DNA of 12,480 bases, taken from a virus (lineage: Duplodnaviria > Heunggongvirae > Uroviricota > Caudoviricetes). A model generated the notes under the pieces. It was given only the letters and a program-made list of their open reading frames with translations. It was not told the origin of the DNA and ran no database searches. The stretch lies in the IMG/VR virus record IMGVR_UViG_2548877011_000005; one strand, written 5' to 3'. Within the stretch, counting starts at the first letter, position 1, and each line of letters opens with the position of its first letter. A program made the translations under genes and the position numbers. Shown here in pieces: positions 1-12,480 of the stretch.

Positions 1-1745
1 ACGCCAATCCGGCTGGTTGCCTCCTTCGTGAAGACAAACTCACCACGGTGAACAATCCCCGCTGGCTCATATTTGCCGCCGGTTCCCGTAAATCCTCCGG
101 TTGCAAAATGGAATTTCGCCGCAGCGGCCTGAATGGCTGCCAGCAGGGATTTCTCCTGTGCAGACAGCTGGCGACGTTGCGCCGCCTCCTCCAGTACCGC
201 GAACTGACTCTCCGCCTTCCACAAATCCCGGCGCTGCTGGCTGATTTTCTCATTCGCTCCGCTGTGCTTCTCCAGCGTCCGGAGCTCGGTTTCAAGCGCC
301 AGCAGGGCAGCATGCGCCTGGTCTTCCTGACGCTCACCGGCTGACACTTTGACTCCTGACGACTTCGGCTTTTTCAGCGTCGATTCATAATCCTTTTTCG
401 CCGCCGCCATCAGCGTGTTGTAATCCGCCTGCAGGATTTTCCCGTCTTTCAGGGCCTTATTCAGCTCTTCCTGCCGGTTAGTATATTTCTCCAGCGGCGT
501 CAGCAGACGCTCATACGCCTTCTGCGCCTCTCCGGTATACTTCAGCCGTGATGCGTCCCGTTCGGCCCGGTCCCTGGTAGCCAGTTCACCGGCTTTTTCC
601 ATATCTGACTGCAGCGTGGCCGCTGCCAGCCCCAGACGGGCATTTTCCCGGTCATCCCATGCGCCCTGCAGGTTGGCACGGAAAGAGGAGGTCTTTCCCC
701 GGCGCTGGCTCCGGCTCTGGTACCACTGCCATTTTTTATCCGCCTCATCGAATGCCTTCTGCGCACTGGCAAGCATATCCGCTGAGGATTCCGGACGACC
801 AATATCCAGAATGGCATCCCACATCGATTTGAACGCCTTCCCTGTTTTATCCGCCCAGGTCTCCAGCGTCCCCATGTTTTCTTTCAGGCGACGGGTCTGC
901 TCATCAAAGCCTTTCGTGGCGATATCGTTCGCCGCCTGTAAGGCCCCGGCCTCATCACCGGAACGCTGCAGCTGCGCAACAAACGCAATCTGCTCTGCCG
1001 TCACGTTACGGAACTGGCGCGCCATCGCAATCAGCCCCGACGTAGGGTCGGTGGTCAGTTTTCCGAAAGCCTCTGCAACCTTGTCCACCTCCACACCGGA
1101 TGCAGAAGCAAAACGCGCGACACTCTGGTTGATGGCATCAAACTGTTCACCACCACGCACACCGGCATTCACCAGGGCTGCCAGTGACTCACTCGCCTGG
1201 TTAAACGTCAGCCCTGCGGCCTGTCCGGCTCTGGAGAGCGTCAGCATGCGATCGGCAGTCAGTCCGGACTGATTACCGGAAAGAACCAGGGTTTTATTAA
1301 ACGCTGAAAGCGTGGAATCCCCCCGGTACCAGGCGTACGCCAGCGCACCTGTCGCCACCGCCAGCGAGGTGACCCCGACCATCGGCAGGGTGATCGCACC
1401 GGCAAGCCCCCTGAACATGGGGATCATCCCGCCGAAGGAGTCCTTCACCTGACCGCCCTGTTGCAGCAGGATCAGCCAGGGATTCTGACCACCGGCAAGC
1501 TGCGTGGCGATATCCGTAAACTGTGCGGGCAGGGTTCGCATGGCCGCTTTATACTGCCCGACGGAAATCCCGGCTTTTTGTGCAGCCAGCGCCTGGCGGC
1601 TCAGGCCCTGTTCAACAGCACTGGCGGTTTTTCTGGCGTCAGTCTCCAGTCCGGAAAAATGACGCCTTACCCGGCTCATCTGCTCATCGAAACGGACCGC
1701 ATCCAGACTCAGGTCAACGACCAGATCGCCTACCGGTTCAGCCAT
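1..1745 (-). CDS. H: Tail tape measure protein gpH, N-terminal 581 codons only; 3' end lies beyond the window start
   Basis: ATG at 1745-1743 (minus) overlaps the T stop at 1738-1740, as in the lambda T/H junction. The minus-strand frame stays open to position 1, which is why no complete ORF appears in the track. Translation begins MAEPVGDLVVDLSLDAVRFDEQMSR... and a checked stretch (1461-1550, reverse complement) gives AAMRTLPAQFTDIATQLAGGQNPWLILLQQ, matching lambda gpH as I recall it. Confidence 0.9.
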   Translation of the reverse strand, partial: MAEPVGDLVVDLSLDAVRFDEQMSRVRRHFSGLETDARKTASAVEQGLSRQALAAQKAGISVGQYKAAMRTLPAQFTDIATQLAGGQNPWLILLQQGGQVKDSFGGMIPMFRGLAGAITLPMVGVTSLAVATGALAYAWYRGDSTLSAFNKTLVLSGNQSGLTADRMLTLSRAGQAAGLTFNQASESLAALVNAGVRGGEQFDAINQSVARFASASGVEVDKVAEAFGKLTTDPTSGLIAMARQFRNVTAEQIAFVAQLQRSGDEAGALQAANDIATKGFDEQTRRLKENMGTLETWADKTGKAFKSMWDAILDIGRPESSADMLASAQKAFDEADKKWQWYQSRSQRRGKTSSFRANLQGAWDDRENARLGLAAATLQSDMEKAGELATRDRAERDASRLKYTGEAQKAYERLLTPLEKYTNRQEELNKALKDGKILQADYNTLMAAAKKDYESTLKKPKSSGVKVSAGERQEDQAHAALLALETELRTLEKHSGANEKISQQRRDLWKAESQFAVLEEAAQRRQLSAQEKSLLAAIQAAAAKFHFATGGFTGTGGKYEPAGIVHRGEFVFTKEATSRIG

Positions 1746-3735: not shown

Positions 3736-4307
3736 CGTTTTATCGCAATCCTCAGCTGTTGTTTCAGCGCGTATGCCAGTTCTCCGGGCAGACGTTCACG
3801 CCGGATACGGTCAACGTTTTCATCAAACGCCTGTTTCAGTGGGGCCGCCATCGGGATTTTCACCACCTGAATAGGAAGGCGATTACGCTTTTTCCTGCCC
3901 TTGTCGTCATTGCCCTTCTCATATCTGGCCTGGGGAAGACGTTGCATAACATGCCAGCGCCCATTATTTAATCGCTGGATAAATGCCCGCTGATAACGAT
4001 GCTGACCGGCTTTGAGTATGCTGTTCGGACGACGCCTCAGCATTCTGATCCCCAGCTTAATCACAGGAAGATCACCGCGGTTAACGATAATTTTTGCATT
4101 CGGATTTCTGACCGTGGCCCGTTTCAGTCTGGACCGTTCCTTAACCAGTTTCCGTCTCACCCTGGTTTCCCGGGCAACCTGTGATGAAGACTGATTAATC
4201 GCCGTTGTGGCCACGCGGTTAATGGTCATTGCAGAAGCCGCCGGAATGGCGTTTTTACGAACCCGGCTCAGATTATCAATCGCCTGCTCAAGCCCTTTTA
4301 TCGCCAT
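3732..4307 (-). CDS. Z: Tail completion protein gpZ (191 aa)
   Basis: ATG at 4307-4305. Translation MAIKGLEQAIDNLSRVRKNAIPAASAMTINRVA... is lambda gpZ-like, and the gene sits between FII and U as in lambda. Confidence 0.9.
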   Translation of the reverse strand: MAIKGLEQAIDNLSRVRKNAIPAASAMTINRVATTAINQSSSQVARETRVRRKLVKERSRLKRATVRNPNAKIIVNRGDLPVIKLGIRMLRRRPNSILKAGQHRYQRAFIQRLNNGRWHVMQRLPQARYEKGNDDKGRKKRNRLPIQVVKIPMAAPLKQAFDENVDRIRRERLPGELAYALKQQLRIAIKR

Positions 4308-9652: not shown

Positions 9653-9855
9653 AACCTCACTCCCAGCGGACGACGGCGACGGCGGGTTGTCCCCAGTACC
9701 GACTCCGCATCATTGATCGCCCGGTTAAGCTCATCCAGAGAAGCTGCCGTATATTCAATTCTGCGACCATCTTTCTGGACAGACACCACCCGTTTACCGG
9801 TTAATAAATCAAGGCGCGCCTGACGCAGCGCCTGCAGTTCAGCGACTGTAACCAT
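9649..9855 (-). CDS. W: Head-tail joining / DNA stabilisation protein gpW (68 aa)
   Basis: ATG at 9855-9853 with GGAGGAG upstream; overlaps the A 3' end by 17 nt. Translation [40 protein letters not shown]... resembles lambda gpW (TGKRVATVQKDGRRVEF). Confidence 0.9.
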   Translation of the reverse strand: MVTVAELQALRQARLDLLTGKRVVSVQKDGRRIEYTAASLDELNRAINDAESVLGTTRRRRRPLGVRL

Positions 9856-11767
9856 TCACTCCTCCGGACAGCTTCGCTGCCAGTTCTTTCAGGGTTGGCC
9901 GGGTCGTCTCTTCTTCCCGGGATTTTGCCAGTACAGCCAGATCAAGCTGCCAGCGTTGCACGGACACACGTAATGCCGCGTAGGCATACACCAGGCAGTC
10001 CAGCGCTTCGTTACGCCGCTTTTTGTTATCCCACAGCAGACGCATCTTTCCTTTTTCCCACTTCTCCACAAGCTCTTCCGCCACCAGTTGCTGCGCCTCT
10101 GTCTGCGAAAAAATCTCCGGATCATCAGGAAAACGGATGGCATACGACGTGGCTTCATCCGCAGGCGTGGGATCGGCTTTCATACGGGCATAGAGAATTT
10201 CTTTTGCGGTGTCCGTCCCCACTTCGCACAGATACACGCCCCACTGATTGCGGGTTTTTGGCATGGTGATCACCGGCTTGCCATAAACAGATGCACCTTT
10301 TACCGGCAGCACCCGGAAAACACCGTGTTTTTTTGACCTCTGATAGACAATTTCGCCATCGATCCCCCCGGTGTCCCAGCAGACACGGGAAATGGTCATT
10401 TCGGTTCCGTCTGCATGGCGGTATTTTTTGTTGATCGCCACATCCACACGTAACAGCGTCTCTTCCTCATCAGGACGCCCCATAATGATGATTTTATCCA
10501 CCAGAAAGGCTTCCTCTCCCGGAGCCCATCCCCAGACATACATCTCAAAACGGTTTCGCTGCGAGTCAATGCCCGCCGTCAGATAAACCACTCGGGAAGG
10601 CACCGCAGCCGTGTAACGCACAACCTTATCCATCAGCACCTGGTGATCGAGTTTTTCGCCCACGGCCTCTTCCCAGGTCTCGCCCAGCGTGGTGTTCACA
10701 AAGGTTTTCAGGCCGTTGGGATCTTTCAGTGCATCCAGCCAGTCATAGACAATCTGTACCCAGGTGGTGAACGGACTGTACGCCGTCCAGATATGGAATG
10801 TGATGGAGCGCGGCGGCGGAATTTCATCACCCCGGGCGCTGAAAAACATCAGGCCGTCACGGGTCCACATGCCCGTGTTTTCACAGATCCACCGCCCGTT
10901 ACTCTGGTCAAGCTCAGACTGATGGATCACACAGCCATGATGCTCACAAAGGTAGAAAACACTTTCTGGCTTATTCTTCTCCCACTTAAGACCGAAAGGC
11001 GAGGCATCATCGCCAAATTTCAGATACTGCTCCTCCCCACAGTGCGGACAGGGCACATAAAAACGCATGAAGTGTGCCGACTCGTTAGCGGCTTTTTCGA
11101 TCTGGCAGGAGCCTTTGATTTTAGGCGTCGAGCCGCGAATGGATTTTGGCCATACAGAGCCCTCAATACGTTTATCCCCCAGCAGGGTTGGCGAACCCTC
11201 TTTTTCAACATCCGGTTCGAACGAGGAAAGCTCGTCATAACAGACCACATCCACGGATTTTTCACGGTAGTTTTTTGCTGCCGCACCACCCAGACACCAG
11301 AACCCCACACCGGAGGAAAAACGCTTCAGGGTGAGCGTATTATCGCGGTGTTTTCTTCCGAACCATGGAGCCAGCTCCAGCAATGCAGGAACATCCCTTA
11401 TCGTTGGCTCAACATGAGATTTCATAAAATCTTCAGCAGCTGAGTCCGTGGGCTGAAAAAGAAGGCTGTTGCGTGATTTATGCTCAATAAAATAAGCCTC
11501 CACTCCCAGCAACATCTTTGTATAACCAACACGGGCAGATTTAATCAGGTTAACCGTGCGAATCAGATCGTTGCCCATACAGTTCATGATGCCAACCTGA
11601 AACGGCAGTGTTTCCCACCGCCCCGGGGTATAAGACGACTCTTTAGGAAGGTAATAATGTTTATTGGCCCACTGAACTGTCGTCAGTGGAACAGGAATAA
11701 TGAGAGATAAAAGCCCTGTAGCTATCGCACCGGCTGCATTAGCTGCCTTCTGCGCGTCTGAAATCAT
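9839..11767 (-). CDS. A: Terminase large subunit gpA (642 aa from the ATG at 11767; track ORF extends to 11809)
   Basis: Lambda gpA-like along its length ([72 protein letters not shown]). The ATG at 11767 has a GGTGGA Shine-Dalgarno and gives the same N-terminal length as lambda before YYLPKES; overlap with Nu1 is then 29 nt. Confidence 0.93.
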
Positions 11768-12287
11768 CGATCCACCCGCCCACGTTTTCACCGGCCTTAG
11801 CTGAAACATTGGAGGCTTTCGCGATTTCAGTTTTCACCACATCAAGGTGTGATGGTGAAATGTCCGGATATTTACGCTGTAATGTCAACGGCACACGCAC
11901 AAGTATCCCCGAAATCTCCTGTGCCACACGTTGTAGAATGAAGGTAAACAGTTCAGTTTCCAGCACTACTCCGTCTTCACGGGCATTTTTCAGTTCCTGC
12001 GCATCTGCCTGCGCTTTTGTGAGTCGGTAGCGTTCATAGTCAATGGTGCCGGGTTGTAAATCTGACTCCGCTGCCGCACGCAAATCGTCCAGTTCTTTGC
12101 GGAGCTTTTCGTTTTCGATATCAGTTTCCCTCTGCGCATACCACTGAATTGCCATGGCAGTATCAAATACAGATTCAATGCCCTTACTACCTTTGGAGGC
12201 GCAAGGGAGTCCCTGAGACTGCCAGCGTTCAATCGTCCGCGGGTCCACGTTGAAAATTTCGGCAAGCCTCTTTTTATTAACCTTCAT
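11739..12287 (-). CDS. Nu1: Terminase small subunit gpNu1 (182 aa), N-terminal winged-HTH DNA-binding domain
   Basis: ATG at 12287-12285, about 190 nt from the cohesive end as in lambda. Translation [28 protein letters not shown]...[28 protein letters not shown] matches lambda Nu1 (MEVNKKQLADIF...RTIQNWQEQGMP...). Confidence 0.93.
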
Positions 12288-12315
12288 GAAAACAACCCAT
12301 TATCAAATACAAGGC

Positions 12316-12326
12316 CCGACATGAAA
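12316..12326 (-). promoter_or_regulatory. Candidate terminase small-subunit binding repeat, R1-like position (ccgacatgaaa)
   Basis: Forms an 11-bp perfect inverted repeat with 12354-12364; about 151-161 nt from the cohesive end (lambda R1 is ~150-165 as I recall). Confidence 0.45.
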
Positions 12327-12353
12327 ACGCCAGAAAAAGGCATTTTCGGACAC

Positions 12354-12364
12354 TTTCATGTCGG
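12354..12364 (+). promoter_or_regulatory. Candidate terminase small-subunit binding repeat, R2-like position, inverted (tttcatgtcgg)
   Basis: Exact reverse complement of 12316-12326; about 113-123 nt from the cohesive end. Confidence 0.45.
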
Positions 12365-12416
12365 ACCTTTACGGATGCAATATTAAAGAAAAACAAAAAG
12401 TTATATTCGAGAAGTA

Positions 12417-12429
12417 CCGACACGATTTT
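12417..12429 (-). promoter_or_regulatory. Candidate terminase small-subunit binding repeat, R3-like position (ccgacacgatttt; partial match)
   Basis: Shares CCGACA-GA with the 12316 copy in the same orientation; about 48-60 nt from the cohesive end (lambda R3 is ~50-65 as I recall). Confidence 0.3.
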
Positions 12430-12464
12430 CCCTGAAAAATTTTCATAAATAGTGAAAAACCGCG

Positions 12465-12476
12465 AGGTCGCCGCCC
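12465..12476 (-). other. cosN: 12-nt cohesive-end sequence GGGCGGCGACCT (minus-strand reading), the terminase nicking site
   Basis: Plus-strand aggtcgccgccc at 12465-12476 is the reverse complement of the lambda cohesive end GGGCGGCGACCT. The following minus-strand bases (CGCGGTTTTTCACTATTTATGAAAATTTTTCAGGG) stay close to the lambda left end as I recall it. Confidence 0.85.
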
Positions 12477-12480
12477 CGTA

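Follow-up and report, generated by a model that had tools for sequence, protein, structure and literature searches.

Does the right end of this phage DNA carry a cos site with a packaging specificity of its own, or a site that has already been characterised elsewhere? The window, i.e., the whole stretch of 12,480 bp analysed here, terminates on its right side in a segment (12288-12480) that an earlier note had read as a cos region with the geometry of lambda and with repeats differing from the lambda terminase-binding boxes. The cosB sites of lambda and phage 21 are the classic model pair for packaging specificity determined by the small terminase subunit (TerS). Sequence comparison indicated that the segment almost certainly comprises the right part of cosN and the complete cosB of a lambdoid phage or prophage of the phage 21 type. 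As such, the site is already known as the characterised cos of phage 21, and no new specificity is involved.

The cohesive end and the adjacent repeats

Positions within the site were counted from the cohesive end on the minus strand, with window position 12476 (the first base of the cohesive end) as bp 1. On this strand, the right end of the window reads TACG/GGGCGGCGACCTCGCGG, with the top-strand nick located between 12476 and 12477, so that only 4 bp separate the nick from the window end at 12480. The window thus covers the complete cosB and the right part of cosN. Beyond its end lie R4, the other half of cosN, and, upstream of cosN, cosQ, which is required for termination. The close resemblance to lambda that the earlier note had seen in the cohesive end and its neighbouring bases was evident in the alignment, where all 12 bases of the end and 42 of the first 49 bp (bp 1-49) agreed with lambda. 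In addition, bp 1-12 coincided with the nicking subsite annotated in the phage 21 record OL657228.

Beside this end, three copies of CCGACA(T/C)GA had been noticed at about 50, 115, and 155 nt, the middle one inverted, and all three were recovered in this arrangement (Table 1). A motif count over the whole 12,480-bp window yielded exactly three matches to CCGACAYGA, all of them inside 110 bp, compared with 0.27 expected by chance, and none of 200 dinucleotide-preserving shuffles gave three. The 16-bp boxes that contain these cores are related to one another to different degrees, R2 and R1 being identical at 15 of 16 positions and R3 matching each of them at 11 of 16.

Correspondence with the cos site of phage 21

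The alignment with lambda and phage 21 that the earlier note had proposed identified the region as the cos site of phage 21. On the minus strand, window 12288-12476 was identical to the phage 21 left end (bp 1-189) at 188 of 189 positions, and a megablast search with window 11700-12480 returned the phage 21 records M81255, X02501, and OL657228 at 99.5% identity. The gene order is shared, R3, R2, R1, I1, I2, and I0 are sequence-identical in the two, and the cos of the window differs from that of phage 21 only in having an additional base pair, at window 12388. Moreover, the three repeat cores sit within boxes that M81255 and OL657228 annotate as R3, R2, and R1, supporting their earlier assignment as counterparts of lambda R3, R2, and R1; the annotated R elements contain these repeats and do not lie elsewhere in the region.

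Table 1. Features of the cos region and terminase genes in the window. Positions in the third column are counted from the cohesive end (bp 1 = window 12476); the R-box labels in GenBank M81255 are given there as "putative".
Feature	Window position	Position from cohesive end	Strand	Sequence or description	Comparison and phage 21 annotation
5' cohesive end, core of cosN	12465..12476	bp 1-12	-	12 nt, GGGCGGCGACCT	12/12 vs lambda and phage 21
I2, secondary IHF-like site (putative)	12433..12447	phage 21 bp 30-44	-		M81255 196-210, "IHF I2 site", mapped via a 100% identical alignment
R3, predicted TerS binding box	12412..12427	bp 50-65	-	AATCGTGTCGGTACTT	16/16 vs phage 21 R3; OL657228 50-65, M81255 216-231
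CCGACAYGA core in R3	12417-12425	bp 52-60	+		
I1, predicted IHF site between R3 and R2	12391..12403	bp 74-86	+	AAACAAAAAGTTA	1 mismatch to WATCAANNNNTTR; OL657228 74-86 (cosB I1), M81255 238-252, X02501 75-85
Extra base pair vs phage 21	12388	bp 89		G on +, C on -	Breaks the run of T residues between I1 and R2
R2, inverted vs R3 and R1	12354..12369	bp 108-123	+	TTTCATGTCGGACCTT (+ strand)	16/16 vs phage 21 R2; OL657228 107-122, "in opposite orientation to R3 and R1"
CCGACAYGA core in R2	12356-12364	bp 113-121	-		
R1	12311..12326	bp 151-166	-	TTTCATGTCGGGCCTT	16/16 vs phage 21 R1; OL657228 150-166, M81255 316-331
CCGACAYGA core in R1	12316-12324	bp 153-161	+		
I0, IHF-consensus-like site	12290..12302		+	AAACAACCCATTA	1 mismatch to the IHF consensus; I0 site in M81255, IHF binding sequence 3 in X02501
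Gene 1, small terminase subunit (TerS, Nu1 family)	11739..12287		-		181/182 vs phage 21 gp1
Gene 2, large terminase subunit (TerL, gpA family)	9839..11809		-	Maximal ORF bounds; phage 21-annotated start internal, near 11767	Pfam GpA_ATPase and GpA_nuclease

Regarding the IHF sites, the A-rich tract suspected in the earlier note of harbouring a bend site contains the annotated I1, which could also be aligned column for column with the I1 of lambda. A scan of the whole window for the IHF consensus WATCAANNNNTTR gave six matches against 6.5 expected, i.e., not above chance, and the I1 assignment is therefore based on position, annotation, and homology as reflected in the lambda alignment. The two further sites, I2 and I0, are weaker IHF-like sites in phage 21 according to the GenBank annotation (M81255). 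I0 overlaps the ribosome-binding region of gene 1, and the gene 1 ORF starts 12 bp after it.

In total, the region shows features of a complex cos of the lambda kind, namely the cohesive end, three related R boxes with R2 inverted, I1, and, immediately downstream, a gene for a TerS of the Nu1 family followed by a gene for a TerL of the gpA family. Phage N15 likewise has a lambda-like cohesive end and a Nu1-family TerS, but its cosB consists of a single R3 without I1, R2, and R1 (PMC4669245), whereas all four subsites are present in the window. A simple cosB of the N15 type was thus ruled out by the three R boxes and I1.

The studies on lambda and phage 21 have described TerS binding to R3, R2, and R1, an IHF-induced bend at I1 that pairs R3 with R2, and the anchoring of TerL (PMC4669245, PMC9026076). 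This mechanism is established for lambda and phage 21, and for the window copy we infer it from near-identity. The winged helix-turn-helix domain of TerS would bind R3, R2, and R1, and IHF at I1 would bend the DNA by about 180 degrees, bringing R3 and the inverted R2 to face a TerS dimer. TerS would then anchor TerL, which would nick cosN with a 12-bp stagger to leave the cohesive end GGGCGGCGACCT. The terminase complex would presumably stay on the cosB-bearing end and dock on the prohead, whereupon packaging could start.

Terminase genes and packaging specificity

Both terminase genes were found next to the site. The TerS encoded by gene 1 was 52% identical to lambda Nu1 and was assigned to Pfam Phage_Nu1 (E = 3.4e-81). 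Its N-terminal 161 residues are identical to those of phage 21 gp1, and the sole change between the two proteins, A162S (window 11804), is C-terminal and falls outside the DNA-binding domain. Furthermore, residues 1-54, which form the winged helix-turn-helix domain and include the recognition helix, were 100% identical to the chain in PDB entry 7LWR, on which no relevant publication was found by literature search; the next relative was 1J9I, the Nu1 domain structure of lambda. The recognition helix (residues 17-24) is of the 21 type and carries E20 and S24, as opposed to Q20 and E24 in lambda.

Compared with lambda, the window retains the layout of the site but differs in the sequence of its boxes. 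Identity to lambda over bp 1-189 was 121 of 189, with the same order and orientation of the subsites (R3-I1-R2(inverted)-R1), the same position of R3 (bp 50-65), the same R3-to-R2 spacing of 58 bp, and a TerS gene starting at about bp 190 in both. The core of the R boxes is CGTTTCC in lambda and TC(A/G)TGTCGG in the 21 type, and no CGTTTCC core was detected in the R boxes of the window. In the alignment, the lambda boxes agreed with those of the window at 11 of 16 positions for R3, 9 of 16 for R2, and 5 of 16 for R1, while an in-register comparison gave 11 of 16 for R3 and 8 to 9 of 16 for R2 and R1. The differences in R3 fall at bp 51, 52, 56, 59, and 62, with G at both bp 56 and bp 59 in the window against T and C, respectively, in lambda.

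Lambda and phage 21 have cosQ and cosN in common, yet both prefer their own DNA to that of the other by more than 1000-fold in packaging (PMC4669245, PMC9026076). According to these two articles, work of the Feiss laboratory places the genetic determinants of the discrimination at bp 56 and 59 of R3 and at residues 20 and 24 of TerS, and E24 of lambda is described there as clashing with the G:C pair at bp 56 of phage 21 R3 (PMC4669245, PMC9026076). Considering that the window combines G56 and G59 in R3 with E20 and S24 in TerS, the site appears to be one of 21 specificity. Given R boxes and a TerS recognition helix of the 21 type, the site should be packaged by a 21-type terminase and should be discriminated against by lambda terminase.

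The dissimilarity of the R boxes to those of lambda could in principle also point to a packaging specificity distinct from both lambda and phage 21. This is extremely improbable, as all three R boxes match phage 21 at 16 of 16 positions and the DNA-binding domain of TerS shows 100% identity to its phage 21 counterpart, and a new specificity was rejected on this identity. A specificity differing from that of lambda, as between lambda and phage 21, which the earlier note had anticipated, agrees with these boxes, which differ from those of lambda and equal those of phage 21.

Spacing allele, candidate RNA stem-loop, and surrounding element

The extra base pair interrupts a run of T residues that varies in length among 21-type cosB sites. 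At the aligned position, phage 21 has T8, E. coli UTI89 has T9, the window and E. coli FDAARGOS_536 have T5CT3, and lambda has T5AT3. As a consequence of the insertion, the start-to-start distance from R3 to R2 is 57 bp in phage 21 and 58 bp in the window, equal to that in lambda. A 60-nt probe (window 12359-12418) detected the 21-type cosB in 575 of 5,426 complete E. coli genomes, and the exact T5CT3 allele of the window was a minority form, carried by 11 of the 576 E. coli records that matched. Some E. coli genomes contained up to four copies of the 21-type cosB, and one copy was located on a plasmid.

The altered spacing and the rarity of the allele raise the question of whether the insertion, which would rotate R2 by about 34 degrees relative to R3, alters the function of cosB relative to phage 21, e.g., in IHF dependence or packaging efficiency. 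Such an effect is very unlikely: T8, T9, and T5CT3 all occur naturally in otherwise identical cosB sites, suggesting that the length of the run is tolerated, and the spacing of the window equals that of lambda and is also found in other prophages. The run represents a natural length polymorphism of 21-type cosB sites, and no sign was found that the insertion affects function.

In addition, R2, the spacer, and R1 (window 12311-12369) together form an extended palindrome. As RNA, this segment was predicted to fold at -35.5 kcal/mol on the gene-1 sense strand (z = -7.2), with several G-U pairs, and at -25.7 kcal/mol on the opposite strand, while its lambda counterpart gave a hairpin of -34.4 kcal/mol from a different sequence, with both strands folding equally well. 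R2 and R1 might therefore act also, or instead, on the RNA of the late transcript, as a long stem-loop just upstream of gene 1 serving as a stabiliser, an attenuator, or a translational control element. If this is true, it could influence how stable the transcript is, how far it is read through, or how TerS is translated. Consistent with such a role, the sense-strand structure is 10 kcal/mol more stable than that of the other strand in the 21 type, owing to the G-U pairs, the hairpin is kept in lambda despite the difference in sequence, and a terminator scan flagged part of it. However, any inverted pair of protein-binding boxes yields a hairpin of this kind, which explains most of the signal, the equal folding of the lambda strands argues against a general strand bias, the T tail of the hairpin is weak, and the literature supports the R boxes as sites bound by TerS at the DNA level (PMC4669245, PMC9026076). 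A function in RNA is thus distinctly unlikely. The same doubtful standing applies to the broader proposal that the R2-R1 stem-loop has a second role as RNA and that, separately, the 1-bp spacing allele tunes IHF dependence.

The window represents the left arm of a lambdoid element of the 21-like kind, whose genes follow one another on the minus strand in the order terminase, head, tail, and tape measure. Identity to phage 21 amounts to 97% in the head module but only 86-88% in the tail module. A mosaic joint was observed at window ~3875-4051, with the head module to its right and the tail module to its left, and about 175 bp at this joint gave no alignment by megablast or blastn. The tape-measure gene (minus strand) has its start near window 1751 and is cut off by the left edge of the window. 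It carries a deletion relative to phage 21 (OL657228) at window ~139. The deletion removes 576 bp (192 codons; phage 21 bp ~12319-12894), and since the frame is open to the window edge, it is in frame and predicts a shorter tail. Searches of the GTDB species-representative genomes returned no exact match to the deletion junction and no match to the exact R3-I1 pattern. The best full-length matches to the window, among phage records and complete E. coli genomes, were 94-96% identical.

These features bear on whether the site is still used, since the element might be a defective prophage in which a cos of 21-type sequence persists as an inactive relic that has lost its use in packaging. Compatible with this scenario are the lack of an exact counterpart of the window in phage records and complete E. 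coli genomes and the tape-measure gene shortened by 192 codons, and the remainder of the element lies beyond the window. Nevertheless, cosB, TerS, and TerL are intact and almost the same as those of a viable phage, and the head and tail ORFs of the window are all open, the tape-measure deletion being in frame. A relic is thus unlikely, and it would concern the use of the site and not its identity as a 21-type cos.

Taken as a 21-type cos, the locus is where packaging starts in a 21-type lambdoid element and where the chromosome in its virion ends. Apart from its value for correct annotation, the site is of little consequence, and the only addition to what is known of it is a natural 1-bp spacing allele. 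The 21-type cosB is common in E. coli, occurring in roughly a tenth of the complete genomes, and the site predicts which helper terminases would be able to mobilise DNA that carries it.
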